IMG/VR virus record: IMGVR_UViG_2522572164_000008
Strand: one strand, 5' to 3'
Origin: a virus
Lineage: Duplodnaviria > Heunggongvirae > Uroviricota > Caudoviricetes
DNA length: 27,592 nt
Numbering within the stretch: the first letter of the stretch is position 1; each line of letters begins with the position of its first letter. The position numbers and the translations under genes were made by a program. This document shows positions 154 to 18,346 of the stretch, one piece after another. The notes under the pieces were generated by a model that was given only the letters and a program-made list of their open reading frames with translations, was not told where the DNA came from and made no database searches.

Positions 154-219
154 ACCACCAGTAGGCGCATAACACATCCAGCGATCAAAGATGTGTTTAT
201 GCACCTGATAGTGAAATTA

Positions 220-718: not shown

Positions 719-1270
719 TTACGCTTCCTGCTCTTTCTTGATACGTTGCACCGTCTGTGTGCTGACACTGAAATCTTTTGCTACGCTCCGAATTGATCCA
801 CCATTCGCGAGAGCGGCAACAATTCCCGCTCGATCAATTGCTTTTCCATTACCACGTTTTGCTATACGTCCAGCGGCCTTAGCTGCGGCGATCCCCTCAC
901 GCTGCCGCTCAAGCATCATTTCACGTTCCATTTGTGCCACTGCTGCAAGCACTGTGAGCATCATATTCCCTGCGGGAGAGTTCTTCCCTGTCTTAAAGTC
1001 TTCTTTATGGAAATGCACAGACACGCCGCGCTCTGTTAATTGCTCAACCGTTGCCAGAAGGTCGGCTGTATTACGACAAAGGCGATCAATACTATGGACG
1101 TGTAACACGTCACCCTCCCGCACATAGTTCATCATTGCCTCAAACTGTGGGCGCTGAGTGTTCTTGCCTGACGCTTTATCTTCAAAGACTTTATCAAGAG
1201 TTACTCCAGCTAATTGACGGTCTGTGTTTTGTTGCACAGTCGATACCCTAATGTATCCAATATTAGCCAT
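719..1270 (-). CDS. Serine recombinase, resolvase/invertase family
   Basis: N-terminal GYIRVSTVQQNTDRQ catalytic-serine motif and C-terminal HTH (SIRSVAKDFSVSTQTVQRI), about 183 aa. Start taken as the second ATG (MANIGY), which has AAGGA 8 nt upstream; ORF-track start is 1276. Confidence 0.85.
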   Translation of the reverse strand: MANIGYIRVSTVQQNTDRQLAGVTLDKVFEDKASGKNTQRPQFEAMMNYVREGDVLHVHSIDRLCRNTADLLATVEQLTERGVSVHFHKEDFKTGKNSPAGNMMLTVLAAVAQMEREMMLERQREGIAAAKAAGRIAKRGNGKAIDRAGIVAALANGGSIRSVAKDFSVSTQTVQRIKKEQEA

Positions 1271-1835
1271 TTTCATTTTCCTTCTGTGTTGATTTGAGTG
1301 TAGTGATTATTGATCGTGTTGATTAGGTGTGTAAAGGACTTTTTTCACTACGAAATTCGAAGGTTTTTAGTGTGGTGATTTAGCCTGCTTTATCACTACA
1401 CGTCTTGCATGAGAATCATGTAGTTACATTTTGGTAAAATTAGCAAGCTATTAAATAGTGTGTTTATTTTGAAAAAATAATTTTTTGTTGCATTAAAGGA
1501 AACTTGTTCGACAAATAATAGATTGATTTTTAATCAACAATTTCTGATAGTGCTCTGTAAGCCGTATTACACAAGGCTTTGCGAAAGTGATGTAAAAGTG
1601 AAGAAAGCTAACATTGCACTTTTTAAGCTACTTTTCATTGGATTTTTACGTAGGAATTACACAGGGATTAATCATCAATTACATTGAATTTAAGCCTGTT
1701 TTAGATGTTTAATTTTGGTAGCAAGAAACACTTTTAGAAGATCATTGCACAGATGCTATGTGATGATTGGATGTAACGGTAGGTCACTGTGAGCTACCCC
1801 TATCAAGTCTGATACCCGATAAGTATAAATAACAC

Positions 1836-1934
1836 CTGGGAAATGAGTTCCGATCTATTTAGGAAATAACCGTGGAAGTGGTTTCCTACCTACCTAGGAA
1901 ATGAGTTCCTATCACCTAGGAAATGATTTCCGAC
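1836..1934. repeat. Three copies of a 13-bp dyad GGAAATGA(G/T)TTCC plus one split copy, next to a roughly 90% AT stretch (1935-2000)
   Basis: Copies read at 1836-1855, 1895-1913 and 1917-1934; split inverted half-sites at 1861-1889. Iteron-like or operator-like architecture. Confidence 0.6.
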
Positions 1935-2944
1935 AATACTATAATTAAACTACAATTAAACTATATAATATAATTCTTTTTTATCTTTATAAGAATAATT
2001 ATAGGGATACCCGTTAGGGAGTCTAACGACTATCCCTTAATCTATTGGCATTCGCCAGAACCTTGCACAAGTTAGAGTGTTAGTCGTTAGACTGCTTGTC
2101 ATAACACATAGTTTTTGTTTGTTGATGTTAGTTAGTAGATCTATGTTCGCTAATGCCGCTCACAACGAATATGTAATCTACTATGTGCAAATAGCCTACG
2201 GCTTGCGTAAGGCTAAATAGTCTTGCGCTGTGCGCTTCAATAGTTCCATTGATGAGGCTTACGCCAATCTAACGATCATCAATCTATTTAAGAGAAAATC
2301 TATTGTGCAATACTCTGACGAGTGCAATAACCTTGTGTGCTACGCGTTAGCGATGTTAGCACATAGACACAGACAACAACCAACAACAAACAAAAAAGAA
2401 AGAATGGTTTTAGTAGTTGAAGGTTAAATAAGTTTCTACCGCTTAAATCAAGCCGTAGGCGAGCTAAACGTATATAAGGCAGGGAAACCTTAGCGGTAAT
2501 AGATTAGCTCATTATAGAGCTTCTGAGGAGCTTTACAGGTATTTTATAAGGTGTCTGAAATTAGAGTTTATCTATCATCTCCTTTTCATATACCTAACAA
2601 ATACAAAATAAGCCCCTTAAATAAACCTCTGGCGAGCTAAACTGTCATTACATAAGGGAATGTATTGTTTTTATCAAAACCTCGTTAGAACGCGTTTTAG
2701 AGAATAAGGAAGAATAGCATCACACAGAAGAGCACGAATTGCTAAGCAAAATCATAACATACTGAAAAATGATCAATATTTTATGGGCGGGGTTGACAAA
2801 AGCCTTTAGTTATGGTAAAGTAATATTAGGGGCAGGAAAACATTCCTATCCTCTAAATAATTAAACCAATGCACCGCACTTTGAAGCCCAAGAGGCTTGC
2901 AAGGTGTCTTTTTCTTTTAACCAAATAGAATAGGAGGTTAATTA

Positions 2945-3127
2945 GTGAAGTATTTCACTTCTCAAGATGTAGTTGAAGCCTGGAAACGTGGTGAGATCAA
3001 CCGCTTTAGGGTAAGAATGAATAGGAACACAGCGCGACGCTGTGGTTATCCAGAGCGTGAAAAATGTTTTGACGATGCACTAAAAATTATTGATGAACTG
3101 CGTAAGGCAGGAGCAGAGAAAGAATAA
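2945..3127 (+). CDS. Hypothetical small protein (60 aa)
   Basis: GTG start with AGGAGG 7 nt upstream; first gene of a tightly packed same-strand array. Confidence 0.5.
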   Translation: MKYFTSQDVVEAWKRGEINRFRVRMNRNTARRCGYPEREKCFDDALKIIDELRKAGAEKE

Positions 3128-3150
3128 TAACAGGAGAAGGAGAAAACCAA

Positions 3151-3339
3151 ATGAATATTAATTTTGATTCTGCAACTTATAACGCGTTGTTAAATCGTGC
3201 AAAGGCAGAAGGGAAATCAATTCCAAAACTTGTTAATGAATTACTAATTACAGTCCTTACAAAGGAGGAACTAAATGATCAAAAATATCAAAACAATTGC
3301 CGAAGCGAAAGCCAAATGTCTAAATCAGAAAGATGGTAA
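3151..3339 (+). CDS. Putative ribbon-helix-helix (CopG/Arc-like) DNA-binding protein
   Basis: N-terminal strand-helix-turn-helix pattern (INFDSATYNALLNRAKAEGKSIPKLVNELL); GGAGAAGGAG upstream. Family call by pattern only. Confidence 0.45.
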   Translation: MNINFDSATYNALLNRAKAEGKSIPKLVNELLITVLTKEELNDQKYQNNCRSESQMSKSERW

Positions 3340-3943
3340 ACAAAAATATGTAGTCGTTGAGCAGTGGTTGAAGATGTTTAAAAAGTGGTTCTCACCGTCA
3401 GGTAATGAATACACCGCTACACTGCCAGCCGTTGAAATCTATAGCTATATAGCTGGATTCAATGAACAAGGGCAAGAATGTTACGCCACTCAAAAAACAT
3501 TATCTAATATTGGAATGGTTAGTGATCGCCAGGTTCGCAATATTATAAATATGTTTGTTGATATGGGAGTTCTTTCTGTAGAGGCTCGGGACGGGCAAAC
3601 ATCACTCTATAAAGCATTACCATTCACAGATGCACATATTACTCCCCCTGGAGAGTCATCACTACCTGATCCTTCTGAGAAAGAAGACGAATCTAATGAA
3701 ATATTGAATGTTTCCGAAATCATCGTTGAAGAAGAAACACAAGAGCCAGAGTTCCCTGAGCGGCCCGAAATTTTTACTTGGCTTCTTTCCCTTGATAAGA
3801 AGAAACCACCGCACGAAGAAACAGAAGATTTTGTAAAACGAGCATTAGATTCAAAGAATATCTATCTTTGTGAAAATGATTTTGACTCTTTGATAATTGA
3901 TCTCAAAAGTGAGAGCACAATATATGATTCACTACCCTTCTAA
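3275..3943 (+). CDS. Winged-helix/HTH protein with acidic C-terminal tail (222 aa), regulator or initiator-like
   Basis: AAGGAGG 6 nt upstream of ATG; HTH-like segment YATQKTLSNIGMVSDRQVRNIINMFVDMGVLSVE; C-terminal half rich in E/D/P. Overlaps the preceding ORF by 65 nt. Confidence 0.6.
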   Translation: MIKNIKTIAEAKAKCLNQKDGKQKYVVVEQWLKMFKKWFSPSGNEYTATLPAVEIYSYIAGFNEQGQECYATQKTLSNIGMVSDRQVRNIINMFVDMGVLSVEARDGQTSLYKALPFTDAHITPPGESSLPDPSEKEDESNEILNVSEIIVEEETQEPEFPERPEIFTWLLSLDKKKPPHEETEDFVKRALDSKNIYLCENDFDSLIIDLKSESTIYDSLPF

Positions 3944-3952
3944 GGAGAATAA

Positions 3953-4222
3953 ATGACTTATAACATCACTATAGGAAACAAAACTATTGAAATAACTGAA
4001 AGCGGATACAACATTTTAAAAGCTATTTTGGACATAGAGTTTTCACCACCGACAGTGGTTAGCTTTTGTAGTTTAGGCGGCTACAGCGCACAACACGTAA
4101 ATCATTGGTTAAATCATTTTACATCGTTCGGTGTGCTGGATTATGAAGGGATTAACAGCACTACATTTCGTCTTTTGAAATTAAACAAAGATTTTGAATT
4201 GTTTCTCACAAACAATCAATAA
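3953..4222 (+). CDS. Hypothetical protein (89 aa)
   Basis: Strong RBS (TAAGGAGAATAA-ATG); same-strand operon context. Confidence 0.5.
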   Translation: MTYNITIGNKTIEITESGYNILKAILDIEFSPPTVVSFCSLGGYSAQHVNHWLNHFTSFGVLDYEGINSTTFRLLKLNKDFELFLTNNQ

Positions 4223-4319
4223 CAACAGATCGGGCAATACATATGGCAAATGCATTTATGGCGATATTCATCGTAACAATGGCGTCCAGTTTTTATAATC
4301 CACATAAAAAGAGGGAAAA

Positions 4320-4703
4320 ATGGGAAGAAAGAAAAAGAACAACTTAAAACGTATTGAAAAAAACAGTAATTTCAATTCAAAAAGACAACGTCCACCGACA
4401 CACACCAATAACGAAATTCCAGGGGAAGAGATAATCTTTATTCTTGAAACAGAATCCCCTGAATTAAGTGATGAAGAATTAGAAATAATCCAATCAATGC
4501 CAGGCGTTTACTTTCGCCCAAGAACAAGAAAACAAACTATCATTTCTGATGGCACTCTGAAACGTTGGCAGCTTTTAGGGTTTAGCTCCTATCATCATTT
4601 TTTGGGATTTAACGCTTTCAATAATTGTGTAGGTGGTGCATCGGAAGTCGATCTGATGGCTCATTTAGAAGATACATTAGCTTCTAACAAACGTTCTAAC
4701 TAA
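4320..4703 (+). CDS. Hypothetical protein (127 aa) with basic N-terminus and acidic centre
   Basis: RBS AGAGGGAAAA-ATG; N-terminus MGRKKKNNLKRIEKN. Confidence 0.5.
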   Translation: MGRKKKNNLKRIEKNSNFNSKRQRPPTHTNNEIPGEEIIFILETESPELSDEELEIIQSMPGVYFRPRTRKQTIISDGTLKRWQLLGFSSYHHFLGFNAFNNCVGGASEVDLMAHLEDTLASNKRSN

Positions 4704-4718
4704 TAAAATGATGGGTGT

Positions 4719-4964
4719 ATGTATAAGCGCCCAATGAAAATATTCAAAAAAGGAAAAATAATGATTGGCTATATTCAAGAAACACAATTATTTCAGATGA
4801 TCCTGTCTGATGCAAAAAACTATGCAGAGTTAATTCGGCTGGCAAAAGAAACAGAAGACTACGAAGCATTAGAGCGTTACCGTGATGAAGTGCTGACGCT
4901 CAAGACACCTTTTAACATCGTATTGAATATGATTAATGATGCATTACAAGGAGAATACGCATAA
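4719..4964 (+). CDS. Hypothetical small protein (start ambiguous, alternative ATG at 4761)
   Basis: Open frame with AGGAAA upstream of the internal ATG at 4761; stop overlaps the start of the next gene. Confidence 0.4.
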   Translation: MYKRPMKIFKKGKIMIGYIQETQLFQMILSDAKNYAELIRLAKETEDYEALERYRDEVLTLKTPFNIVLNMINDALQGEYA

Positions 4965-5263
4965 TGGAAGAAGATATTAGCAATGCAATGGAACAACTTT
5001 TAGATCTGACTATCTCACTACAAACAAGAATAAATCAAGCCTATTCAGATTTATGCGATTACACGCTCTCTCAATGCGTTATTAGCTTAATGAAGGTGAA
5101 TGTAAGCCTTGACGATTTTATCTCTCTGGTGAGCGTATCAGAGGACGATGCAAAACAGTGTAATCAAATCATCACAGACATCGCCACCACGTTAAAGGTT
5201 GCAAGTGAAGAGATTCAGCAATTAGTAGATGATTTAGCAAAAAGTGCTATTTTCTCTAAATGA
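4964..5263 (+). CDS. Hypothetical protein (99 aa)
   Basis: RBS AAGGAGAA upstream; ATG overlaps the previous stop (TAATGG), suggesting translational coupling. Confidence 0.5.
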   Translation: MEEDISNAMEQLLDLTISLQTRINQAYSDLCDYTLSQCVISLMKVNVSLDDFISLVSVSEDDAKQCNQIITDIATTLKVASEEIQQLVDDLAKSAIFSK

Positions 5264-6253
5264 TAATGAAAATTATTTGCATTTATAATGATTTTGTTAT
5301 ATAATAATTTAGGGGTAGATAAAAAGATTTTAGTTGGTGTTAATCCTTCTACTGTCATAAATCCCTGCATATGGAAGGTGATAGCCTCAAAGGTTGAGTG
5401 GCATTAACCTCTAACAAATATTACCTTCCATCTCTCAAGAAGTTTTAGAATAATCATAACTCCCTCTTTGATTGTTGATTGTTGATTGTTTCTACGTTGT
5501 GTTGATGAATGTTGTTAGGCATTGTGCTTAATTTTGATAAAAGCGGGTAGGTGTTATCTCCTTGCCCTTCCCGCTCTTATTTTTCATCTATGCTTATCCT
5601 AAAGCTCCTTATTTTGTCAGAAAACATTAAAGAGCCTTACACTGATAGTTATATTTTATAACTATTTACTAACATCATTAAACTATTATTTAATGACAGA
5701 AGTTAGTAACAGAATAATCTATTAAGTTGTTGTCAAAAACAATCATCTGCATAGCGTTAGCCGCAAGCAGAGAGAGTTTAGCTAAGAATGGTGCAATAAA
5801 CTTTGGAAATATTGATAGCAAAACGGGTTTTATAGAATGCGGATCTATAAGCTTTGGTTGTAAAAACGATTTTCTGAAACGGTAGATTACTGTTGGTGTA
5901 GTTAATCATTATTAAAAATTTAATCCGTGAGTAGATTGGAATAGTGATTCCTTAAAATCTGACTGGTGCATCCACACCATGAAAGATAGCGGTTGGCCAC
6001 CGCGCCCCGAATAGATATTCCTGATTGATTCCGCATGTTTTCCTAAGAGCATGTTTTCAGGAGTATCTATTCACCCTTTAAGCATATCATCAAGTATATT
6101 TAAAAAGTGTATTTGCTGATATGTTTAATCCTCTTATAGTTTAACTTATCAATTATGTAATTGCCCGCACGTTAAAGCCCCTTTGCTGGTCAGAATTAAC
6201 CTCTTACGGCATTGGGGCTTTTTATTTGTCTGGCACTAACAGGAACATTATTT

Positions 6254-6451
6254 ATGAAACAAGAAATGATTATCAGCAAAGACGGGGAAACGATGATTGT
6301 TAGTGATGAAAACCTCATTAAGGTTGCCGCACTGTTGGGAGTTACTCCCGAAAGTCTTCGTTCTACCACTGCTCAATTATTTAAATCGGCTGATGCGGTT
6401 AGTCTTGCTGATGCCCTTAAATCTAAAATTAAACAACTGAAAGGAAAATAA
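6254..6451 (+). CDS. Hypothetical small protein (about 65 aa)
   Basis: ATG at 6254 with AGGAA 8 nt upstream; the ORF-track start at 6212 lies inside a terminator-like hairpin and is unlikely. Confidence 0.45.
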   Translation: MKQEMIISKDGETMIVSDENLIKVAALLGVTPESLRSTTAQLFKSADAVSLADALKSKIKQLKGK

Positions 6452-6455
6452 TCTT

Positions 6456-6839
6456 ATGGCTAACCCATATGGAAAATTAAAAGCAGTGAATGCGGATAAC
6501 TCCCGTTCACGCTGTAAGGTAGTAGCTTACGCTGCTGATCCAGTGCTGCAAGATCGCCTCGTCAAACTGGCTTCACCTCTCACTGACGATCTTATTGTCG
6601 GGGCTTTGCTGAAAGCCGATGGCACCAAAGCAACAACCGCATCTGATATTGCTCACGTAGTAGTTGAACCGGCTTATGAAGGACAGGAAAGCGTAGTGGT
6701 TGCACATCCTACTTTCGTTATTCTGGCTGAAGATGGGATTGAATTTAACAGCATGGAAAAGGCAAGTGTTATTGCAAAACTGCAATCTCTCGGCTTTGTA
6801 ATTGCTGGTTATGAAGAACTTGCGATCCCTACGACTTAA
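6456..6839 (+). CDS. Hypothetical protein (127 aa)
   Basis: RBS AAAGGAAAA; starts 4 nt after the upstream gene and is followed 14 nt later by the next gene. Confidence 0.55.
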   Translation: MANPYGKLKAVNADNSRSRCKVVAYAADPVLQDRLVKLASPLTDDLIVGALLKADGTKATTASDIAHVVVEPAYEGQESVVVAHPTFVILAEDGIEFNSMEKASVIAKLQSLGFVIAGYEELAIPTT

Positions 6840-6853
6840 CAAGGAAAATAATA

Positions 6854-7885
6854 ATGAATGATTTATCAACATATTTTGGCGTTAATACTGCGGTAGTAAC
6901 TCCATTTGCTTATGAGAATGCACTTAATACCCTGATTACTAATCTCGATCTGTTCGATGTGCAATATCATACAGAAAACAGCATTCTTCTTACCGACCTG
7001 ATTGATCAGTTTGTGCAGGTAGCTGGGGAAACCTCGCCTTACGCTCAAAGCGACTGGAACGCCTCTAAACGTCAGGAATGGTCAAACAAACTTTTCCAGA
7101 TGAAACACGTCGGCAGTATTAACGCTGTTACTTCTCGTGACCTGGAACAATACAGCCGCCAATATCCAAACCGTTCTGATGCTATGCTGATAGCGGTTAA
7201 TGATTTCTCTGAGGCTCATTACCGTTCACACGCAAACCGTGTTGAAGTGGATCTGATTACCGCGCTGCTGGGCCTGAAAGTTGAATCTGAATATGCCGGA
7301 CAAGGTGATCTCGACTTCCTCGACGGTCAGGCTAAAACCACGGTACCCGCTATCGACTTTGCATCGACTACTGTTAACCCGTTCCTTGCTATTCGTAAAG
7401 CGGTGCGCTTACAGAGTGAAAAGCTGGGGTCTGGTCTTGCTGCAAAGCGAACTGGTGTAATTATCTTTGCTGCTGGCACTGCTGCTGATGGTTTGTCATC
7501 TAACCCGCTGATCAGTGACATGGTGAAATATGCAGGCGATGCGAGTGCTACGGCCCTGTTTACCCGTATGGTTGATTCTAACCCAGCCTATGACTCTTTC
7601 CAGATTGGTGGGATCACTGTTATTGATGTGTCAATGTTTCCTGAGATTGTTGCTCACATCGGAGAGAACGGTTTCGCAATTGTTCCGGTAATGGATAAAG
7701 CGGCACAGTGTTACCAGCTTCATAGCGGCGTTGGTGTGCGTCATGCTGAGTTAGGTCAAGATGCCGTGTTGCATCACCAATATCTAATCAAGGATGAATT
7801 CCAATTCCCATCTGTGGTTACTGAGACATCTTATCTGCCAGTAAACAACATTCCGCAAGCTATCATCTTCGGATCTGCTGCGTAA
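6854..7885 (+). CDS. Hypothetical protein (343 aa), no recognisable catalytic or nucleotide-binding motif
   Basis: RBS CAAGGAAAA; long ORF with protein-like composition; no Walker A seen. Confidence 0.65.
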   Translation: MNDLSTYFGVNTAVVTPFAYENALNTLITNLDLFDVQYHTENSILLTDLIDQFVQVAGETSPYAQSDWNASKRQEWSNKLFQMKHVGSINAVTSRDLEQYSRQYPNRSDAMLIAVNDFSEAHYRSHANRVEVDLITALLGLKVESEYAGQGDLDFLDGQAKTTVPAIDFASTTVNPFLAIRKAVRLQSEKLGSGLAAKRTGVIIFAAGTAADGLSSNPLISDMVKYAGDASATALFTRMVDSNPAYDSFQIGGITVIDVSMFPEIVAHIGENGFAIVPVMDKAAQCYQLHSGVGVRHAELGQDAVLHHQYLIKDEFQFPSVVTETSYLPVNNIPQAIIFGSAA

Positions 7886-8036
7886 TAAAGCGTTAATAGA
7901 CGATTCCCCATCGGGGCAATAAGGGTAAAGGGATTAACTAACCTGTAGGCGCAAATACAGTAACGAATCTCTTTGCCCTTTTTGTTTTTCTACTGTCTAC
8001 AAACCCAAATAAAAATATATATGTGAGAGAAAACCA

Positions 8037-8234
8037 ATGAATACAGAAAACCCACAATCCTTTATTCTTAAGGCTGTAAAAGAACTGGCAGCTATTAGCG
8101 AGGAATCAGTTATAAACACATCGGCGCTTTGCCGCCTTTTAGAAATTGATGCAAATAATGTGCGCCAGCGTGTCTTTCAGACTGGGTGCAGCACTTTCGA
8201 AGCAATTCAATACTATTGCTCTAAAAAACAATAA
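8037..8234 (+). CDS. Possible small HTH-like protein (65 aa)
   Basis: Weak RBS; segment TSALCRLLEIDANNVRQRV is HTH-like. Could be non-coding leader. Confidence 0.3.
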   Translation: MNTENPQSFILKAVKELAAISEESVINTSALCRLLEIDANNVRQRVFQTGCSTFEAIQYYCSKKQ

Positions 8235-8268
8235 TAAACAACAATCATAATACAGGGAAACAATTAGC

Positions 8269-10110
8269 ATGTTAGAACTTAACGTCAGCCGCTTATCAAA
8301 CGTTGTCACCTTCCAGGTTGATCGACCATCATTAGAGAAAGCAAAAGCAGAAGTAGAAAAACTTCGTAAACAAATGGCGGCGGTGAAAGATATAGAATTG
8401 CGTGTTAAGACACATAAACAATCAACTTCTAAAGCAAAAAAAGACGTAGACGATATTGCTAAAAAGCAAGCACAGGCAGATAAAGCCAATGCTAAAGCAC
8501 AATTAGCCGCTCAACGTGTAGTTGCAAGAGAACAAAAAGCCCTGGCAGCACGCAAAGAGAAGGCAGACTTAAAACTGTTAGACGTTGGATCAAGCATTAG
8601 TGCATTGCACCGCCTTTCTGTAGCGGAACAATATAAAGCTATTGCACAGGCTAGAGAAATTGCCCTCCAATATGAAAGAGGAGCTATTAGTCTGGCACGT
8701 ATGAATAGCCAAATGAAACGCCTACAACAGCAACAACGTAAGATTAATGGCAATCGTAACGCTCACGCTAAAGCCTATGCACCTGTTAAGGGTAGCGGGA
8801 GTATTGGCGGCGGTGCTGCGGCTGTTATGCTGGGTGGCTTAGGCGCTGGCGCTACGTATATGGCTATGAGCAAAGCCTCTGAATTTGTTACTAACAGCTT
8901 TGCGAATGCTGAAACGCTGGGTGAATTGTATAGCCGTGCGAAGCTGGGCGGTGTAGACGTTAACCAGATGAACAATATTGAGCAATGGGCCTACAAAAAC
9001 GGCGTTGATTCAATGATGGGGGATCAAGGTAAACGTAAGTATCTCGATCAGATGAAAGATGTGCGTGAGCGTGCAACCAAAAGCTATGATGAGGCTGAAT
9101 ATGTAGTCGATAAAAAAACAGGCAAAGGTGAATGGAAGGGCGGCGATAGCGGCATCAATACTTTAATGAATGAAGGATTCTTAACTAAAAAGGATCTAAA
9201 AGACTTTGCTGATAATCCGGCTGGTCTGGTTAGTAAAGCAGTTCAGGGAATGGTGAAGAAAGGCTATTCAGATGCACAAATCGGTAGTCGTCTGGAAGAT
9301 CTGGCTGATGATTTGATGCTCACCTCTAAATACTGGACACGCTCCGCTAAAGAAGTGGAACAATCAGCACGAGAACAACGAGAATCAGGGCGCTGGGTAA
9401 CACAGGCACAACAGGAAAGCGTTATTAAATTCCGTGAACTGAATAATGCACTTAGTGGGCTTTCTGACTCACAAGGGATCGCCTTTGTTGATGGCTTTAT
9501 GAAATCTCTTGATCCGAAAGTGATTGAAGAGTTTAAAAAGAGCATGGTTGCAATGCTGCCAATGTTTACCAAATTAGGCGAGGCTATCGGCGGATTGGTT
9601 AACGCCGTAATGAAAACAATCAACTGGCTGATGAAAAACGACGAGAAGACGGAAGCTATTCAGAAGAATTTAGGGGATGCACCGCCACTATCTAACGAAG
9701 GAATGAAGCAGAATCTTTCTAATCTCACTCCTGATCAATATAAAGGCGCTGGCACCGGAACAACTAAGCCAGATAACAGCAATTCCCTGGTTAACACTAT
9801 TAAAAGCTGGTTTATGCCAGAAGAAACGGTAGGTGGGGCGCAGGCTGTAAATCAATACAGTCTCGAAGGACAAAACATTGCAAATCTGAAACAGAGTGCA
9901 GCACAACAAGCTTTCAAGGCTCCTTCTTACACCTTTGCACCTGTTATTAACTTCAATCCAGAATTACAAGTAAATGCAGAAGTGCCGCTAACTATCGAAT
10001 CAGACACCGGACGATTGAGCGAATTTATCGACTTCAAATCAAAGGCATCCTCCGCTGAGTTTAGCAAGCTATTAACGCTGGGTGTTATGTCAGGCGGGTC
10101 AACCTATTAA
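8269..10110 (+). CDS. Large protein (613 aa) with Lys/Ala/Gln-rich N-terminal predicted coiled coil, a Gly/Ala-rich hydrophobic segment and a roughly 400-aa C-terminal domain
   Basis: RBS CAGGGAAACA; residues about 20-160 are K/A/Q/E-rich heptad-like; about 170-200 reads GSGSIGGGAAAVMLGGLGAGATYMAM. Confidence 0.7.
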   Translation: MLELNVSRLSNVVTFQVDRPSLEKAKAEVEKLRKQMAAVKDIELRVKTHKQSTSKAKKDVDDIAKKQAQADKANAKAQLAAQRVVAREQKALAARKEKADLKLLDVGSSISALHRLSVAEQYKAIAQAREIALQYERGAISLARMNSQMKRLQQQQRKINGNRNAHAKAYAPVKGSGSIGGGAAAVMLGGLGAGATYMAMSKASEFVTNSFANAETLGELYSRAKLGGVDVNQMNNIEQWAYKNGVDSMMGDQGKRKYLDQMKDVRERATKSYDEAEYVVDKKTGKGEWKGGDSGINTLMNEGFLTKKDLKDFADNPAGLVSKAVQGMVKKGYSDAQIGSRLEDLADDLMLTSKYWTRSAKEVEQSAREQRESGRWVTQAQQESVIKFRELNNALSGLSDSQGIAFVDGFMKSLDPKVIEEFKKSMVAMLPMFTKLGEAIGGLVNAVMKTINWLMKNDEKTEAIQKNLGDAPPLSNEGMKQNLSNLTPDQYKGAGTGTTKPDNSNSLVNTIKSWFMPEETVGGAQAVNQYSLEGQNIANLKQSAAQQAFKAPSYTFAPVINFNPELQVNAEVPLTIESDTGRLSEFIDFKSKASSAEFSKLLTLGVMSGGSTY

Positions 10111-10157
10111 TCATCACTGTGGGGCTGTTTAGCCCCCTTAAATAAGGATTACAAATT

Positions 10158-10835
10158 ATGGCAATGGGTCCGTTAACCATTGGTCGCCCGACTGAGGCGA
10201 AAATCAACAGCACAAGCAACGATAGCAACGGTAGAACAACCAAAGGGGGTAACGGCTTTGCGATCATTACCTCTAATCTCGGCAGTGGTGCAAATGCTGC
10301 TTACAATGACTACCAGGCATTATCATTTGATAGCGTGGAATCGACGAAAGTTAGCAGAAATGCGGACGTTACAAGCTATGCCGTCGAATCAGGATCAGAA
10401 GTTAGTGATCATGTTCAAATACGGAATAACAAGTTCACATTACAAGGGCGTATCTCTGAAACCGTATTGAAGCTCAATCCTGATATGATTAAGAATGCTG
10501 GAATTAACGGCAATCGACGTATGCTTATGCTTGAATACCTAAATCAGTTGATGGACAGTCGCCAACCTTTCCTACTTGTCACTGAGTTAAAAAATTATGA
10601 CAACGTTGTGTTAGTTGGCATGTCTTACGAAGAAGAAGCAAGCGAAAGCCTATTGTTTACTCTTGATTTTGAGCAAATCCGTCTTGTCTCTAAAGCAACT
10701 ACAAGCGCAATTGCGGTAAAAACAGCACCAAATAAATCTGTAGGAGGCCAGGTTAAAATGCAGGTAAATACAACAGAACAGAAAAATCAAAAAAGCCCAG
10801 GGCAAGACGTTGTAACGCCAGTATTTAAACAATAG
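10158..10835 (+). CDS. Hypothetical protein (225 aa)
   Basis: RBS TAAGGATTACAAATT-ATG; last gene of the same-strand array. Confidence 0.6.
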   Translation: MAMGPLTIGRPTEAKINSTSNDSNGRTTKGGNGFAIITSNLGSGANAAYNDYQALSFDSVESTKVSRNADVTSYAVESGSEVSDHVQIRNNKFTLQGRISETVLKLNPDMIKNAGINGNRRMLMLEYLNQLMDSRQPFLLVTELKNYDNVVLVGMSYEEEASESLLFTLDFEQIRLVSKATTSAIAVKTAPNKSVGGQVKMQVNTTEQKNQKSPGQDVVTPVFKQ

Positions 10836-10876
10836 CCTTAAACGCCTATGAAACGCTCTGTAACGAGATAATCATA

Positions 10877-10908
10877 AAAGAGGCATCAGTCTATATTGAA
10901 GCCTCTTT
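10877..10908. terminator. Putative bidirectional terminator between convergent genes
   Basis: AAAGAGGC ... GCCTCTTT 8-bp inverted repeat followed by T-rich sequence, between the 225-aa gene stop and the integrase stop. The loop is long (16 nt). Confidence 0.4.
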
Positions 10909-10915
10909 ATTACGT

Positions 10916-11820
10916 CTATAGCGTTGTTTTACGCCTTAAATTTGATTTTTTATTGATTGATAAGCCTTTCTCTATTTCAGGGTAGCGTAAAAGCTCAATA
11001 TATTTTTTAAGCTCTATTGGAGAAGCTGCATTTTTGCTATATGTGCGGAATGTTTCTGTATTGCCGCGTGTATGGCCCAGGAGAAGGGCGATCCTGTCTT
11101 CTGGAATTTGATTTCGATCAAGAAGCTGTGCTACTCCGTGTCTCAGAGAATGAAACACTTTCCTTTCTGTTCCCTTTTCCCCTAAAGCCTTTCGTTTAGC
11201 TCTTGTAAATCGTTGTGTATGCCACGTAGAGCGTTTACCGTCAGCACGTTCTGTAATGCTGGCGTGATAGAACAAAAAGCCATTGTGAGGCTTTTCACGC
11301 AGCGACAACACCAACGGAGTGATAAGGTTATGCACAGGCACAACACGTGCCGCAGCTTTCGTCTTTCCCTGTGTGATTTCAAAACACAGCACACCTTCGA
11401 TCTCTTTCACATCGTCTATTGTGAGACTTGCTATCTCATTGATCCGCATACCTGTATATAAACCGATAAGACACAAAGCCGTCATTTCTTTGTTTTCTGC
11501 TGAATTACCGGAAAATACTTGCAACACCTGCAATAGCTCTTTGTTAGAAAATGCCTCGTAGCTCTCTCTACTTTGTGCCACATCAAGCCTATGCCCTCGC
11601 CAGGGGGAGAGCGCCCTTTCTGGCGCATCGTGGTAACGTGATGAAGCTAATTCCCATAGCTGGGCCATTGGACTGATATAATTTGCAATTGATTGTTGTG
11701 AAAGAGTTTTTTGCATGTGTTCAATCCAGCCTGTAACAGTGGTGCGGCTTACATCTTGCAATGCAATATCAGGCTTTTTACGGTAGGAGAGAAACATCTC
11801 TACCGCTTTTCTTGCCTTAG
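10916..11820 (-). pseudogene. Tyrosine integrase, C-terminal catalytic fragment (separated from its N-terminus by IS5)
   Basis: Contains H-x-x-R (FHSLRHG), LLGH and a C-terminal Tyr (RTYSK) typical of tyrosine recombinases. The first 23 codons of the ORF-track protein are read from inside IS5. Confidence 0.8.
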
Positions 11821-13015
<1,195 letters not shown>

Positions 13016-13479
13016 TTAGCTAAAGTGGCTGGCTTCTTCTTCGTGCTGTTAATTGTCAGGTAGATTTCAAGAATTTTAAGCAATGACGGACACGAAGACG
13101 CTGTATCTTGCACTCTGGTAGCTGTTTTGGCGTATTTAGCCTTACTGCGTAACAGTTCCAGCGTGTTTTCTATTGTGCTGTTTACAGGGGCAACACTCTC
13201 CCGTAAGCAATGGTATTCATCTGCAATCTGATCACGCTTTCTACGTGCAACACGAAGATTACTTGTGTGTAGACTTCTGACAAACGTCCTTTTTCCTTCA
13301 AAAAAGGGCTGCATATACACAGGCAGCGTGATCCTTAAATAGTAGTTACCGTAAGAATCACAGATTAAGTATTGGTTAGGCTTGTATCTCATAAAATCTC
13401 CGGCTAAAGTGTCGGAGCGTTTGTAATGTGAAAATTGATTGTGACGCATAGAAAATGATGATTTTTCTATAAGATTCAA
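13016..13479 (-). pseudogene. Tyrosine integrase, N-terminal fragment (continues at 11820-10916 across IS5)
   Basis: N-terminal integrase-like segment (YYLRITLP...GKRTFVRSL). The ORF-track protein then reads through into IS5 (about 36 aa of IS-derived sequence). Frame arithmetic shows the two fragments are in frame once IS5 and one TTAG copy are removed. Confidence 0.8.
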
Positions 13480-13644
13480 TCAATTAGTAATGGTCGTAGG
13501 TGATGGCATTAACACGAGATTAATCGAGTGTTTTACTCCTATTATCGGCACCATTCTAATGTCTCCCCAAGTCTACTCAAGTATTTAAAAACCTCTTATA
13601 ATCCGCATGTTAGCGCCCCTTTTAGTCTTTTGACGTCTACTTAA

Positions 13645-13717
13645 GTACCCCAAAATCTACAGTCAATTGGGGGTACTTTTGGGGGTATTTGCTGTTCAGT
13701 TTAGTGGAGGTACCCCC
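13645..13717. promoter_or_regulatory. GGGGGTA(C/T)/TACCCC(C) repeat cluster in the inter-integrase region
   Basis: Four copies in rev-fwd-fwd-rev orientation (13645-13651, 13669-13676, 13681-13688, 13709-13717), immediately upstream of and overlapping the integrase RBS. Confidence 0.4.
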
Positions 13718-13719
13718 AA

Positions 13720-14934
13720 GTGAAACTCAATGCCCGTCAAATAGACACTGCCAAGCCAAAAGAGAAGGCTTACAAGCTGGCTGATGGTGGTGGTCTGTAT
13801 CTCTTGGTAAAACCTAGTGGAGGAAAATATTGGCGCTTCAAGTATCGTGTAGCTGGTAAAGAGAAGCTGTTAGCACTAGGTGTGTATCCTGAAGTTACTT
13901 TGGCTGATGCTCGTGCAAAACGTGAAGAAGCTAAAAGGGGTATCGCTGGGGGTATCGATCCGATGGAAGCGAAACGAGAGGAAAAGATTGCCCGGGAAAC
14001 GCAGTTAAACAACACCTTCAAAGATATTGCCCTTGAGTGGCACAGCAGCAAATTAAAAAAATGGTCTGCTGGTTATGCTTCAGACATCCTCGAAGCCTTC
14101 AACAAAGATGTGTTCCCTTACATTGGCAAAAAACCAATCGCCGAAATCAAACCACTTGAACTGCTGAATGTGCTGCGGCGCATCGAGGGGCGCGGTGCTA
14201 CCGAAAAAGCCAAAAAAGTGAGGCAGCGATGCGGGGAAGTTTTCCGCTATGCAATTGTCACTGGACGTGCTGAGTATAACCCTGCACCGGATCTCACCAG
14301 CGCGATGCAAGGTCATGAATCTAATCATTATCCTTTCCTCACAGCCAAAGAATTACCTGATTTTTTCAAGGCATTGTCCAGTTACTCAGGAAGTGCATTG
14401 GTTGTTATGGCGGCTCGTCTACTGATTATCACCGGTTTGCGGACTGGCGAACTGCGCGGTGCATTATGGGATGAAATCGATCTCAACAAGGCTATCTGGG
14501 AGATACCTGCTTCACGGATGAAAATGCGTCGCCCTCATGTGGTGCCTTTGTCTAAGCAGGCTCTTTCGCTTATTGGGCAGATTAAAGAATTAACTGGCAA
14601 TTATCCGCTTATGTTTCCCGGCCGTAATGATCCAAGGAAAACAATGAGCGAGGCTAGCATAAACCAAGTATTTAAACGCATCGGCTATAACGGAAAGGTT
14701 ACTGGTCATGGATTCCGGCACACCATGAGCACCATTTTGCATGAGCAGGGCTATAACACCGCGTGGATAGAGACGCAGCTCGCACACGTCGATAAAAACT
14801 CAATTCGTGGCACATACAACCATGCGCAATATCTGGATGGACGGCGGGAAATGCTTCAGTGGTACGCCGATTATATGGATTCGCTCGAGCATGGCGGAAA
14901 TGTGGTGCATGGTGAGTTCGGAAAATGCGGGTGA
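13720..14934 (+). CDS. Tyrosine integrase, P4/CP4-57-like family (404 aa)
   Basis: GTG start with GGAGG 9 nt upstream; N-terminus ARQIDTAKPKEKAYKLADGGGLYLLVKPSGGKYWRFKYR typical of P4-type integrases; catalytic R...HGFRHT...Y region near the C-terminus. Confidence 0.9.
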   Translation: MKLNARQIDTAKPKEKAYKLADGGGLYLLVKPSGGKYWRFKYRVAGKEKLLALGVYPEVTLADARAKREEAKRGIAGGIDPMEAKREEKIARETQLNNTFKDIALEWHSSKLKKWSAGYASDILEAFNKDVFPYIGKKPIAEIKPLELLNVLRRIEGRGATEKAKKVRQRCGEVFRYAIVTGRAEYNPAPDLTSAMQGHESNHYPFLTAKELPDFFKALSSYSGSALVVMAARLLIITGLRTGELRGALWDEIDLNKAIWEIPASRMKMRRPHVVPLSKQALSLIGQIKELTGNYPLMFPGRNDPRKTMSEASINQVFKRIGYNGKVTGHGFRHTMSTILHEQGYNTAWIETQLAHVDKNSIRGTYNHAQYLDGRREMLQWYADYMDSLEHGGNVVHGEFGKCG

Positions 14935-15062
14935 CTGGTTGAGTATACAGTAGTAGACTTTGAGCGACGAAAGAAAAGGCTGTGTCTAGGGGCGCTCCCG
15001 AAAATCCGTACATCTCGACGGACTGGTACAGCCACTACAGTAGAGGACGCTGAGGTGTGCGT

Positions 15063-15860
15063 ATGATTGATATTCATGCCGAATTAAACGAATACAAAAA
15101 AGATTTTATTTCTTTACGTGAATTTCTTGAGGTCGTGCTTAAGGTCGCTGGTGATGATTATGATGTTTCAGATGTCATAACTTGGATACTCAGGAGAATA
15201 AGCGGAGAACATATCCGCCTGTACACAGTAAATGAATTTAAGCTGTTGGAATCTTTTTGTAACCCGTATCGGGATGAATTTGATTATGATGTTCTTTATA
15301 GAAATCTGAATGCGGTTCGGAAACGTGGTTGTTTACCTGGTGAGAGGGATGAAAATGGTTTTCTGGTGTCCGGTTATTGGGAAGATCCCGAATTTGAGAA
15401 CATTGGATTTATAAGGGGTGAAATTTTCGCAATTTTTCCCGATGTCCTTGACGCGTTAACGAAGCTGGAAGGCGCTAACTCTTCTGAAAATGACGAGGCA
15501 CAAGGACGCGATATTGAAAAGAAAGAGTTGCGTACAGAGGATGATTTATTATCCCAAATCGCAATGCTGGAAAAAGAAAACGCAGAGTTAAGGGCAAGGA
15601 TAGAGCAGTTAGAGCAAGAGCGCCCGATACACTTATATAAATACTGGGATAAAGACCCATTAGCTAAGGCTATTGAGATTAGAAACAGAGAGTGGGCCAA
15701 TTACGATCCAGAAAATGATTTTGCCACTAGGGGAAATCAAGAAGCGATAACCAGGGAGCTTAAGCAGTGGGGGGCAAGTAATGCTCTTGCAACGCTCATA
15801 GAGAGGACTGCCTGCCCTATTAACCGAGACAACAGCCAAAAGAACGCAAAGCCGGATTAA
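15063..15860 (+). CDS. Hypothetical protein with predicted coiled-coil segment (about 265 aa)
   Basis: ATG at 15063 with GAGGTG 6 nt upstream; coiled-coil-like EDDLLSQIAMLEKENAELRARIEQLEQE. Sits between int and alpA. Confidence 0.6.
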   Translation: MIDIHAELNEYKKDFISLREFLEVVLKVAGDDYDVSDVITWILRRISGEHIRLYTVNEFKLLESFCNPYRDEFDYDVLYRNLNAVRKRGCLPGERDENGFLVSGYWEDPEFENIGFIRGEIFAIFPDVLDALTKLEGANSSENDEAQGRDIEKKELRTEDDLLSQIAMLEKENAELRARIEQLEQERPIHLYKYWDKDPLAKAIEIRNREWANYDPENDFATRGNQEAITRELKQWGASNALATLIERTACPINRDNSQKNAKPD

Positions 15861-15875
15861 CGCACCATACCGCAT

Positions 15876-15985
15876 ACCCTGAGGGTGATTTACTGTTACC
15901 CTGAGGGTATTTTTTTATCTTCCCCGTCAATTTTACCATCACCCTTAGGGTTAATTTCCTTCCGGTAACCATTAGGCCTGAGGGT
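15876..15985. promoter_or_regulatory. Array of ACCCT-N-AGGGT palindromes upstream of alpA
   Basis: Perfect copies at 15876-15886 and 15898-15908, variant ACCCTTAGGGT at 15941-15951, partial at 15977-15985. Confidence 0.5.
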
Positions 15986-16054
15986 ATGAAAATATTCGTT
16001 ATTTCTGTGCCATGATTACCTCGTCAAATTGAGTAGACGTTATGAGGTAAATAT

Positions 16055-16252
16055 ATGTCAAATACGCTTATTCGTTTAACAGAAGTTCAGCGTAGAACTG
16101 GATATAGCAAGGCATGGATTTATCGCCTTATGGGGCAAGGTAAATTTCCTGCATCAGTTAAAATTGGCTCGCGAGCTATTGCTTTCGTTGAGAGTGAAAT
16201 TGACGAGTGGATTAATCAGCGTATTGCTGAATCACGCGGAACAGCTACCTGA
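16055..16252 (+). CDS. alpA: AlpA-family phage transcriptional regulator/excisionase-like HTH protein (65 aa)
   Basis: Sequence LIRLTEVQRRTGYSKAWIYRLMGQGKFPASVKIGSRAIAFVESEIDEWI matches the AlpA family pattern; RBS GAGGTAAATAT-ATG. Confidence 0.85.
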   Translation: MSNTLIRLTEVQRRTGYSKAWIYRLMGQGKFPASVKIGSRAIAFVESEIDEWINQRIAESRGTAT

Positions 16253-16330
16253 TTAAATGGCTACGGGGCCAGAAGCCCCCAGCTATCCACCAGCAAATAA
16301 AAGTAACTTAATTCGATAGCAGGAGTTTTT

Positions 16331-17131
16331 ATGAAACTGCGAAAAACGCCCGTACAGGGGCAGGGCTTCGTTCGGCCTGAAAACCAGAATCTGCAAAATT
16401 TCGGCGAAATTATCCCGGTTATTTCCGGCGTTATTGGCGGGCGTGAAACCAATATTGTTAGCGGCAGAGCGTTGCATAAGGCGTTAGGTGTAGGTCGCGT
16501 TTTCCGTTCGTGGATCAAGGGGCGCATTGAAGAATACGGCTTCACGGAAGGCGTGGATTATGAGGTTGTTGAATATTTGAGCCGACCCGATCCGGTGAGC
16601 GCAAAATCTCGCCAGCAAACAGCTCTTGAGTACATCATTACCGTGAACATGGCGAAAGAACTGGCGATGGTCGAACGCACCGAACAGGGGCGCGCCGTTC
16701 GTCAGTACTTCATCAAATGCGAGGAAGAGCTACACAAGGTTGCGCCTGTACGTTCCGCAGCGTTACGCCGGGAACTGAAAGCCCGTATCACAGTTGCCAG
16801 CTACTTTAAGCCAATGTGTGCCGCGCTGGAGGACTACCGGGCTGAACTGGGTAAAAACACTCTACAGCACCACTACACCACGGAAGCCAATATGCTGGCG
16901 CGTATCGTGCTGGGTGGCATGACTGCAAAACAGTGGGCGCAGGTGAACGGCATCACAGGCGAACCACGCGACCACATGAGCACGTTGCAGCTTGAGCACC
17001 TTTCTTACCTTGAGCAGAGCAATATCACGCTGATTGAGTTAGGCCAGGACTACCACCAGCGGAAGGCTGAATTAATTCGTCTTTCGCAGCGTTGGTTAGC
17101 CCGTCGCATGGAGGAAAACAGCCATGTGTAA
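16331..17131 (+). CDS. Phage antirepressor-like protein (266 aa)
   Basis: RBS AGGAG; N-terminal region resembles prophage antirepressor proteins as recalled. Family assignment tentative. Confidence 0.6.
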   Translation: MKLRKTPVQGQGFVRPENQNLQNFGEIIPVISGVIGGRETNIVSGRALHKALGVGRVFRSWIKGRIEEYGFTEGVDYEVVEYLSRPDPVSAKSRQQTALEYIITVNMAKELAMVERTEQGRAVRQYFIKCEEELHKVAPVRSAALRRELKARITVASYFKPMCAALEDYRAELGKNTLQHHYTTEANMLARIVLGGMTAKQWAQVNGITGEPRDHMSTLQLEHLSYLEQSNITLIELGQDYHQRKAELIRLSQRWLARRMEENSHV

Positions 17132-17590
17132 CGCTCTGACCGTTACAAAAAGAGAAAGCGCCCCGTTGCCGGAGCGCCTTTGTGAACGAATAGCCTACTG
17201 CGCCATATTGCTTACTGTCTACGAGGCAGATTATAGCGTTGTGGTCGCACAGAGTGAAGGCGCTGATCACCGTTACTACAGCACGCCAGAAATGCAGAAT
17301 ATTTTGCTGCAAAATGCCGTTGGCCACGCTGTCCGGAAAGCAAAAAATTTTGCTGGTGGCGCGACTGATGCGATTTTGTCAGGTCGCCAGGTGCTGATCA
17401 ATCTGATGTCTGATTTCGTTCTGGATAAAACAAAGGCGACCGCAGAGAGCCGCCAGTGGAAAAGCTACATACTTGAACGCATCACCAACAATGCCACATT
17501 TGCGGCTGGTGGGCAATGTGTCAGCTTTGCACCAATGACTCTAGGTTTAACTGAGGGTCATTATGGTGAATATGCTGGCTTGCTGGTGGG
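17124..17590 (+). other. Coding-like 5' part of a 1.57-kb stop-free frame; status unresolved, possibly a decayed or fused gene
   Basis: ATG at 17124 overlaps the upstream stop and has GGAGGA 9 nt upstream, but the frame has no stop until 18692 and runs antisense through a plausible minus-strand gene and a promoter region. The end coordinate is arbitrary. Confidence 0.3.
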
Positions 17591-18154: not shown

Positions 18155-18176
18155 CAGAATGTCCGGTTATTTTGAG

Positions 18177-18279: not shown

Positions 18280-18346
18280 CAACGCCCCGCAGTGGTGGCA
18301 CACATGCAGGGCGTCTAACCAAACCGTTAAACGAGGTAACGATTAT

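Follow-up and report, generated by a model that had tools for sequence, protein, structure and literature searches.

A tape measure protein encoded by a small integrative island of Escherichia coli, a likely satellite of lytic myophages

The protein at 8269–10110 and its relatives

The stretch of DNA considered here (27,592 nucleotides, IMG/VR record IMGVR_UViG_2522572164_000008, referred to throughout as the window) is part of the Escherichia coli chromosome, and is identical over its whole 27.6 kb to O104:H4 strain FDAARGOS_349 (locus L001) except for an IS5 element of 1,195 bp. The gene of interest, at 8269–10110, is 100% identical in O104:H4 and other strains. Its 613-residue product is, on the homology set out below, almost certainly a tail tape measure protein (TMP), related from end to end to gp134 of phage phi92, and it is encoded, together with other putative virion proteins, on a mobile island of about 13 kb that is likely to be a satellite of lytic phages. 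Translation confirmed the reading frame on the plus strand with its ATG start, as reported in an earlier reading of the window made from the letters alone (the sequence-only reading), and the tape measure, which that reading had offered as one of several options, is now firmly supported.

The assignment is based on matches of several kinds. In PHROG the protein matches family 16051, “tail length tape measure protein”, with an E value of 3.4e-34 over residues 154–611, and a search of PDB sequences returned chain V of 21vq (Phi92_gp134) with an E value of 1.5e-22, the first 15 residues within this match being MLELNVSRLSNVVTF in the island TMP and MLEINTSKIKNTVTF in Phi92_gp134. Electron cryo-microscopy of phi92 has identified gp134 as the trimeric TMP, with residues 631–656 inside the baseplate, and gp135 as the hexameric tube initiator (PMC13450770). 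The island and phage genes share their setting as well as their sequence, since a gp135-type tube initiator gene comes next in both (starting 48 bp downstream in the window, and in the same order in phages PHB05 and phiWec188). Identity with the TMP of PHB05 is 29% (E value 3e-28), and relatives found with tblastn occur only in lytic Stephanstirmvirinae myophages with genomes of about 145–150 kb (Justusliebigvirus and Phapecoctavirus), at about 30% identity. The family is a narrow one: an exhaustive HMMER search over 1.84 billion representative sequences returned just 75 clusters at E ≤ 0.001, whose full-length members have 578–668 residues. RefSeq labels the protein hypothetical and no Pfam or NCBIfam model matches it; it is a previously unannotated member of a known TMP family.

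Four parts of the sequence are common to island and phage TMPs, namely the N-terminal 35 or so residues, a Gly-rich segment, a central domain and the last 45 or so residues:

8269–10110, plus strand: TMP gene, 613 residues, ATG start (PHROG 16051 and phi92 gp134 homology)
8269–8373, plus strand: N-terminal conserved segment of the TMP, residues 1–35, beginning MLELNVSRLSNVVTFQVD (similarity to phage TMPs)
8779–8871, plus strand: Gly/Ala-rich hydrophobic segment, residues 171–201 (composition and hydropathy; low pLDDT; aligns with NAAIALNPAMFGAALLGAGLY of the phage TMP)
8890–9462, plus strand: central helical domain, residues 208–398 (pLDDT about 90; conserved motifs)
9976–10107, plus strand: C-terminal peptide, residues 570–613 (counterpart of the part of phi92 gp134 resolved in the baseplate)

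At the N-terminus identity with the first 33–66 residues of phage TMPs reaches 45–56%, and in an alignment of island and phage TMPs residues M1, L2, N11, V13, T14, F15, D18, S21, L22 and K26 are invariant. Residues 208–398 hold most of the invariant columns in two TMP alignments, including the motifs W..NGVDS, KDVRER, WKGGDSGIN and QIG..E.L.DD.M, while at the C-terminus D579, S584, D588, S594, F598, L602, T603, L604, S608, G609 and S611 are invariant across island and phage proteins. Against this shared framework there are clear differences from the phi92 and rV5-type proteins: identity is only 25–29%, the island TMPs lack two phage inserts (one Gly/Pro-rich, the other an Arg/Glu/Lys helix of about 40 residues), and they are shorter, at 610–618 residues (613 in the window) compared with 651–660. 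The setting differs also, in that the island TMP is carried on an integrative element of 13 kb and the phage TMP on a lytic genome of 150 kb, and no recognisable chaperone, tube or sheath gene stands beside the island gene.

Some aspects of the original description of the protein need to be revised. The N-terminal region of about 150 residues had been called K/A/Q/E-rich and heptad-like; the first of these terms holds, residues 1–170 being 54% K/A/Q/E/R by composition with a single Pro, whereas the second does not, as residues 20–170 show no 3.5-residue hydrophobic periodicity above that of shuffled sequences (a fraction 0.45 of shuffles equalled or exceeded the observed value). Long helices are nevertheless predicted by AlphaFold2 across residues 19–169, and it is the central domain that shows strong 3.5-residue periodicity. 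The segment that follows, described as Gly/Ala-rich and membrane-type, includes GSGSIGGGAAAVMLGGLGAGATYMAM (residues 175–200); it is certainly rich in these residues (29% Gly and 52% Gly plus Ala over 171–201, with small-xxx-small spacing), but its hydrophobicity is moderate, with a maximum in a 19-residue Kyte-Doolittle window of 1.28. A second hydrophobic segment at 425–448 reaches 1.34 (the first spanning 173–201), and both maxima fall below the thresholds usually applied to transmembrane segments. Judged from the alignments with phage TMPs, the Gly/Ala-rich segment is a conserved feature of the TMP family rather than the signature of a toxin.

In the AlphaFold2 model, which was built from an alignment of 37 sequences, helices cover most of residues 19–547; mean pLDDT is 63.9, and confidence is good at about 60–169 and 208–398. 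The stretch of roughly 400 residues after the Gly/Ala-rich segment, previously taken as one domain, does exist as a stretch of that length but is not a single unit, comprising the helical domain at 208–398 and then a tail modelled at low confidence (398–613) that ends in the conserved C-terminal peptide. A Foldseek search of the PDB with the model gave only generic helical bundles (best E value 0.38) and no fold match, and there is therefore no hidden lysozyme or peptidase domain in the protein. Against BFVD the same model matched viral proteins of about 650 residues (E value 6e-16), those among them with names being tape measure proteins.

The structural module and the island that carries it

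The sequence-only reading recognised no tail or capsid genes near the TMP gene. This proved to be mistaken, as the TMP gene is directly followed by a tube initiator gene and has upstream of it the genes for a cement-like and a major capsid protein. The genes surrounding that for the TMP are as follows:

6212–6451, plus strand: small open reading frame (ORF) of about 65–79 residues, first gene of the structural module (present in all variants)
6456–6839, plus strand: cement- or decoration-like protein, 127 residues, weakly assigned (best PDB match Phi92_gp123, E value 0.98)
6854–7885, plus strand: major capsid protein, 343 residues, of the PF03864 or phi92 gp124 type (family profile; homologues)
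8037–8234, plus strand: ORF of 65 residues directly upstream of the TMP gene, candidate TMP partner or chaperone by position only
10158–10835, plus strand: tube initiator, Dit-like, 225 residues, homologue of phi92 gp135 (Pfam PF21821, E value 1.2e-27; Phi92_gp135, E value 7.4e-54)

The tube initiator is 49% identical to gp127 of PHB05, the gene after the TMP of that phage. Identification of the capsid protein required a family profile, BLASTP of the window alleles of the capsid and cement-like proteins against phage proteins having given short motifs only, and tblastn with the window capsid allele zero matches in 50,697 phage genomes. The profile matches Phi92_gp124 in the PDB over its full length (E value 1.5e-13) and also the capsid chain 9zbi_A (5e-15), and homologues at 42–49% identity, from Klebsiella, Citrobacter, Cronobacter and Enterobacter, contain PF03864 and go by the name major capsid protein. 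The 127-residue protein shares its size and position with the phage decoration gene, and is tentatively regarded as cement-like.

The module was surveyed in 25 loci from IMG/VR and a genome collection, five Logan or NCBI contigs and three Klebsiella-type loci. Its order (small ORF, cement-like protein, major capsid protein, 65-residue ORF, TMP, tube initiator) recurs with products of about 70, about 120–128, 342–345, 62–67 and 610–618 residues and, in E. coli, a tube initiator of 225–237. All six genes are under purifying selection: ratios of non-synonymous to synonymous substitution (dN/dS, by the method of Nei and Gojobori) are 0.14–0.29 for the TMP, 0.03–0.13 for the tube initiator, 0.12–0.22 for the capsid protein where dS is unsaturated, about 0.19 for the cement-like protein, 0.08–0.27 for the 65-residue ORF and 0.09–0.22 for the first small ORF in unsaturated comparisons. 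Such low values imply working genes and not remnants. The TMP and tube initiator are 59–100% identical among E. coli variants and the 65-residue ORF, kept in every variant, is 28–85% identical, while the capsid and cement-like pair occurs as at least three alleles with less than 20% mutual identity (window 6456–7885, and the capsid slots of L013/L029 and of L020–L024), two of the capsid alleles matching the phage capsid protein over its entire length (E values 2e-11 and 1e-7).

Klebsiella-type islands (L034–L037) have no tube initiator gene, the module being otherwise alike, and their TMP (616–618 residues) is 35% identical to the phage TMP (E value 1e-80) as against 28% to the E. coli island TMP, which suggests, from sequence comparison, separate exchanges with different helper lineages. 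In L031 (7831–10996) and L032 the TMP gene is split into ORFs of 326 and 322 residues by an insert of about 1.2 kb carrying small ORFs. In strain BA92 (L038), PGAP has named two island ORFs of about 66 residues “ABC transporter ATPase” (9640–9843) and “ACP S-malonyltransferase” (11195–11395); neither name is plausible, and it is with the second of these ORFs that the structural module opens.

Just upstream of the module, positions 5263–6212 comprise some 950 bp without ORFs, with a 16-bp inverted repeat at 6009–6024 and 6057–6072. This region gave no Rfam match and no surplus of sigma-70-like promoters, and it may be a control region for late expression dependent on a helper. A scan for sigma-70 promoters and terminators around the module found no enrichment and was uninformative, and Rfam applied to window positions 1–14000 at E ≤ 0.1 found nothing. 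Among the remaining island ORFs there is no match to a portal, terminase, protease, sheath or tube protein, nor one long enough to encode any of these, and most baseplate genes are also absent.

The features that define the element and its mobility are these:

719–1276, minus strand: serine recombinase of resolvase/invertase type, 185 residues (PHROG 125, E value 2e-62; “recombinase family protein” in RefSeq)
10916–13393, minus strand: tyrosine integrase (DUF6538 and Phage_integrase in Pfam), split by IS5
11821–13015, plus strand: IS5, 1,195 bp, with a DDE transposase of 326 residues, inside the integrase gene (PHROG 3598, E value 2e-174; terminal inverted repeats at 11821 and 13004)
13530–13554, no strand: attR, a direct repeat of the 3' end of tRNA-Thr (core found at window position 13536)

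The left attachment site, attL, lies about 600 bp ahead of the start of the window. In the intact island of L001 the integrase is uninterrupted (425 residues) and the att repeats, at 10103–10127 and 23063–23087, are 92% identical and 12,960 bp apart, the integration site being tRNA-Thr/thrW. Of 5,426 complete E. coli genomes, 629 (about 12%) contain related DNA, in every case in the chromosome, and relatives extend to Klebsiella and other Enterobacteriaceae. Other copies of the island have different integrases and sites, for example a 557-residue integrase between yciQ and rluB, and one Klebsiella copy has 21-bp att repeats 12,689 bp apart. A scan of the genome collection with the TMP alone yielded one further E. 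coli locus only, the peptide patterns used being too specific.

There is also evidence for a non-integrated form. Four complete Logan contigs (L004, L005, L007 and L034; lengths 13,846, 13,237, 13,685 and 12,390 bp; runs SRR31140684, ERR11027388, ERR5014346 and ERR6294143) have identical 30-nucleotide ends, the length of identity corresponding to k − 1 for k = 31, and their breakpoints fall in different genes; a 13,599-bp NCBI contig (GCA_949767545.1 contig 6, L008) is a rotation of the same circle. The contig ends indicate a circular or tandem form and not an artefact of the att repeats, encapsidation not being implied. Circles of the variants that carry a helicase (instead of the initiator and repeats described in the next section) have no integrase and L034 does have one, which suggests that the former represent an episomal state and L034 an excised form. 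No plasmid record in PLSDB matches the circular form, and the whole helicase-type element has no match at the nucleotide level in the phage database. The element thus ranges from 12.4 to 13.8 kb, and it combines the properties by which satellites are recognised, being mobile, with integration and replication functions of its own and an incomplete set of virion and packaging genes. In none of the loci was a larger parent prophage seen.

Sequence shared with Stephanstirmvirinae phages

Links between ORFs in the rest of the island and phages emerged when the small ones were concatenated and compared with phages by tblastn. Four features at the left of the island bear on the connection with phages:

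633–715, no strand: copy of a phage terminal-repeat boundary, candidate packaging site (similarity to phage non-coding DNA)
1834–1947, no strand: four palindromic repeats of about 22 bp resembling iterons or operators (ACCTrGGAAATGAkTTCC), candidate origin (repeat search)
3151–3339, plus strand: ORF of 62 residues, ribbon-helix-helix-like by eye (common to helper-type phages)
3275–3943, plus strand: putative replication initiator Rep, 222 residues, with a winged helix-turn-helix (wHTH) domain (HTH_36 in Pfam; replication-initiator families in PHROG)

Residues 30–122 of Rep are 83–90% identical to the middle of proteins of about 330 residues in phages Mt1B1_P17, BI-EHEC, muut and inny, and at the nucleotide level identity over 261 nt is 93%. 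These phage proteins, which are labelled hypothetical (Mt1B1_P17 gp053, L039:2168–3154; muut gp094, L040:2135–3133), have two Rep-type wHTH domains ahead of a C-terminal domain of endonuclease type (MUG113/T5orf172 in Pfam; PHROG 681, E value 2e-18). It is the second wHTH that corresponds to the window-type Rep, at 89% identity in muut gp094 and 85–90% in Mt1B1_P17 gp053, and the first wHTH of gp053 shares 99% identity across 105 residues with Rep of another island allele (L012–14, L017 and L019). In Vibrio cholerae, the phage ICP1 has a T5orf172 nuclease, Odn, with a DNA-binding domain captured from RepA of its PLE satellites (elements resembling phage-inducible chromosomal islands) at 42% identity, which cuts the origin of the PLE and drives the swapping of replicons (PMC8263062). 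Judged by their domain make-up, the phage proteins found here look like a double-headed analogue of Odn. Islands with 98–100% identity in their TMP and capsid genes have exchanged the Rep module, as would be consistent with Odn-like pressure, and other island variants carry a helicase instead of Rep and the iterons. The iteron-like repeats, which sit in a gene-poor, AT-rich stretch of about 1.9 kb, are present in all seven of the loci with a window-type Rep.

The ORF of 62 residues is identical at 52 of 53 residues to a gene of phages PaulScherrer (bas60_0101, L041:2501–2686) and VEcB, with 98% nucleotide identity over 167 nt to the former. In PaulScherrer it occupies the slot that in muut holds the chimeric nuclease, and the phage gene may be a captured satellite regulator. 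Sequence has been exchanged recently between the element family and Stephanstirmvirinae phages.

The third signal of interplay with a helper, besides the nucleases with Rep domains and the shared small gene, is the non-coding element of about 85 bp at 633–715, which is about 81% identical to non-coding DNA of some 60 Phapecoctavirus-type phages. In the record of one of these, WPEC1, the last 328 bp repeat the first 328 bp as a direct terminal repeat (DTR), and the counterpart of the island element straddles the left DTR edge, with 29 bp outside and 56 bp inside (L043 1501–1585; L045 1–56). Since the DTR edge falls within the element, the physical end of the phage would correspond to about window position 660. 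Terminal repeats of 342 bp have been reported for a phi92-like phage using PhageTerm (PMC12210895). The element is therefore put forward as a candidate mimic of the packaging site, that is, a copy of the helper concatemer junction which the terminase would be expected to recognise, and this would account for the island doing without a terminase gene. The element lies just downstream of the serine recombinase gene, and a role as a recombination site is an alternative.

The satellite reading, its rivals and known systems

That the island is a satellite is likely, and that its TMP serves to build chimeric tails is plausible by analogy; the combined proposal, that the TMP belongs to an element of about 13 kb acting as a satellite of lytic rV5/phi92/phAPEC8-like Stephanstirmvirinae myophages and forming chimeric tails with them, is held with somewhat better than even confidence. 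Slightly firmer is the more general view that these islands constitute an undescribed family of Enterobacteriaceae satellites of lytic phages of about 150 kb, integrated or circular, with their own capsid protein, cement-like protein and TMP, usually a tube initiator, a terminal-repeat mimic, and an arms race in the style of PLE and ICP1, in which helper phages would use double-headed nucleases of the Odn type together with a small regulator that they had captured, and satellites would evade these by exchanging their replication modules and capsid alleles. The literature searched contained no account of satellites of rV5, Stephanstirmvirinae or Phapecoctavirus, though one may exist elsewhere.

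In the proposed sequence of events, the element would replicate from its own Rep/iteron module on infection by a helper, the helper terminase would cut and package it at its copy of the terminal-repeat junction, and the DNA would enter small heads made of the island capsid and cement-like proteins. A TMP trimer would dock through its conserved C-terminal peptide in the helper baseplate hub, the island tube initiator would form a ring around it, and helper tube and sheath would then polymerise on the TMP as template to give a chimeric tail. With 610–618 residues in place of 651–660 this tail might be shorter by about 7 nm, or roughly two of the 24 tube rings of phi92, a figure obtained by arithmetic (about 46 fewer residues at about 1.5 Å per helical residue) and not by measurement. 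Hydrophobic segments of TMPs are generally assumed to help form a conduit for DNA, and at infection the island TMP would be ejected and its two such segments could help to form one through the envelope. Possession of its own TMP could also allow the element to sabotage or bypass tail assembly of the helper. A role as a ruler, and not only as a poison, is argued most strongly by the constancy of length (610–618 residues) between E. coli and Klebsiella island TMPs that are only 28% identical.

A number of observations tell against the satellite proposal, or at least complicate it. Helper dependence, packaging and incorporation of the TMP are all inferred from sequence, and the effect on tail length is residue-count arithmetic only. 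It is unusual for a satellite to have a capsid protein of its own and yet to rely on a helper for portal and scaffold. The cement assignment is weak, Phi92_gp123 being the best of 177,635 PDB sequences but with an E value of 0.98. No homologue of a tail assembly chaperone, the gene for which (usually with a frameshift product) comes before that of a TMP, was recognised in the island, and the 65-residue ORF has no family match and no similarity either to a chaperone or to the 57-residue phage gene in the same position. Neither the helicase-type circular variants nor the Klebsiella islands yielded the terminal-repeat-like element (a search of the non-coding DNA of the helicase-type variant gave a match of 43 nt only, which is not interpretable), and the iteron-like repeats are also present in one other island locus, L021, whose Rep is only 33% identical. 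Finally, with its integrase broken by IS5, the copy in the window may be locked in the chromosome and no longer excised.

Of the other explanations the one deserving most attention, though it is considered unlikely, is that the TMP, the tube initiator and perhaps the capsid protein act as decoys, co-assembling with phage parts and aborting assembly, so that the island would defend the bacterial population without forming infectious particles. Conservation of those termini of the TMP that should touch phage parts, where the rest has diverged, would fit this, as would the phage nucleases aimed at the island, which imply that it harms phages, and interference with tail assembly is a known defence strategy of satellites (Tai, Rta). 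Against it, the fixed length of the TMP at 28% identity is what one would expect of a working ruler, and both the tight constraint on element size (12.4–13.8 kb) and the copy of the terminal-repeat junction point to packaging. The two roles are in any case not exclusive, as PLEs show both (PMC12987554). The Tai tail-assembly-inhibition systems were considered as a possible match for the island and set aside, the Tai paper containing no TMP-like proteins.

It is improbable that the island is instead what remains of a decaying temperate prophage akin to the rV5-like phages, with the TMP left over and without current role. The position at a tRNA beside an integrase, the interruption of that integrase by IS5 in the window copy and the listing of such regions as predicted prophages in IMG/VR would all be compatible with decay; but the six genes of the module are all intact, purifying selection acts on them in variants whose synonymous divergence is saturated, the compact architecture and the size are the same in E. 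coli and Klebsiella islands having different integrases and sites as well as in circles, no larger parent prophage was seen at any locus, and the known relatives of the virion genes belong to strictly lytic phages of about 150 kb. Very improbable indeed is a stand-alone glycine-zipper membrane toxin or pore former unrelated to virion assembly. The Gly/Ala-rich segment with its small-xxx-small spacing and the second hydrophobic segment had made a membrane-active toxin one of the options in the sequence-only reading, but with hydropathy maxima of 1.28 and 1.34, conservation of the Gly/Ala segment in phage TMPs and strict synteny with tube initiator and capsid genes, it has no support: PADLOC and NCBIfam matched nothing among the island proteins, and neither these nor Pfam nor the structure searches connected the TMP with any toxin, defence or enzyme family or fold.

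The preferred reading, of a satellite with chimeric tails, has its closest parallel in the PLEs. There the TMP, chaperone and baseplate hub (tmp-tac-bhuB) are respectively 20%, 20% and 41% identical to those of ICP1, chimeric tails of altered length are built, and deletion of tmp costs 96–99% of transduction; putative tmp genes were also noted in other putative satellites, some phage-inducible chromosomal islands of the capsid-forming kind (cf-PICIs) among them (PMC12987554). Here too a small island appears to depend on a lytic myophage and has a diverged TMP together with a less diverged protein of the baseplate core (26–35% and, for the tube initiator, 49–61% identity to phage, compared with 20% and 41% in the PLE); Rep and origin are swapped in modular fashion; and the helper-type phages have a nuclease of T5orf172 type joined to a DNA-binding domain captured from Rep. 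There are differences also. Odn has one captured domain at 42% identity, whereas the phage nucleases here have two in tandem at 85–99%; PLE remodels the ICP1 coat protein, whereas the island has genes of its own for a major capsid protein and a cement-like protein; the hosts are Enterobacteriaceae, and the island is 12.4–13.8 kb and found also as circular contigs. The likeness draws on published descriptions of PLEs, which are known from experiments, whereas the island is known from sequence. In short, the system resembles PLE in strategy and differs in its own capsid, in host and helper, and in the double-headed counter-nuclease.

Neither of two other well-known classes accommodates the island. 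The cf-PICIs have their own HK97-fold capsid protein within a complete head module (portal, protease, connectors and small terminase) and take tails from the helper. The island is like them in its capsid protein, and some cf-PICIs reportedly have putative tmp genes, but it has no candidate ORFs for portal, protease or terminase and yet has tail genes, and so falls outside that class. Satellite P4 (helper P2) is 11–13 kb, integrated or circular, copies the helper packaging site (cos) and makes small capsids with a decoration protein (Sid, Psu), but encodes no capsid or tail structural protein and exploits temperate helpers. Comparable size, the integrated or circular state and a putative copy of a helper packaging site are shared; the absence of P4 hallmark genes, the presence of capsid and tail genes and the lytic nature of the helper-type phages place the island outside this class as well.

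The PLEs of Vibrio cholerae are the only satellites for which a tape measure of their own and chimeric tails have been demonstrated to date (reported 2025–2026). If the interpretation favoured here is right, the same strategy and an Odn-like counter-defence operate in E. coli and Klebsiella, the carriers amounting to about one in nine complete E. coli genomes and including the O104:H4 outbreak lineage. The targets would be rV5/phi92/phAPEC8-like phages, which are common in therapeutic cocktails and some of whose failures of host range could be accounted for in this way; the parasitism of virulent phages by satellites could be studied in a genetically tractable model; and names could be given to hypothetical genes, namely those for the TMP, the capsid protein, the phage chimeric nuclease and the captured 62-residue protein.

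The remainder of the window is occupied by a second, P4-like island (13668–27592, equivalent to L001 23201–38355), bounded by the perfect 21-bp repeat TGGGGGTACTTTTGGGGGTAT. Its genes include those for an Arm-type integrase, an AntA-family protein, an Icd-like protein and a DUF927 primase, and it ends in a PARIS defence pair (AriA, E value 5e-43; AriB, E value 4e-22), of which AriA begins at window position 26597 and runs past the window end.

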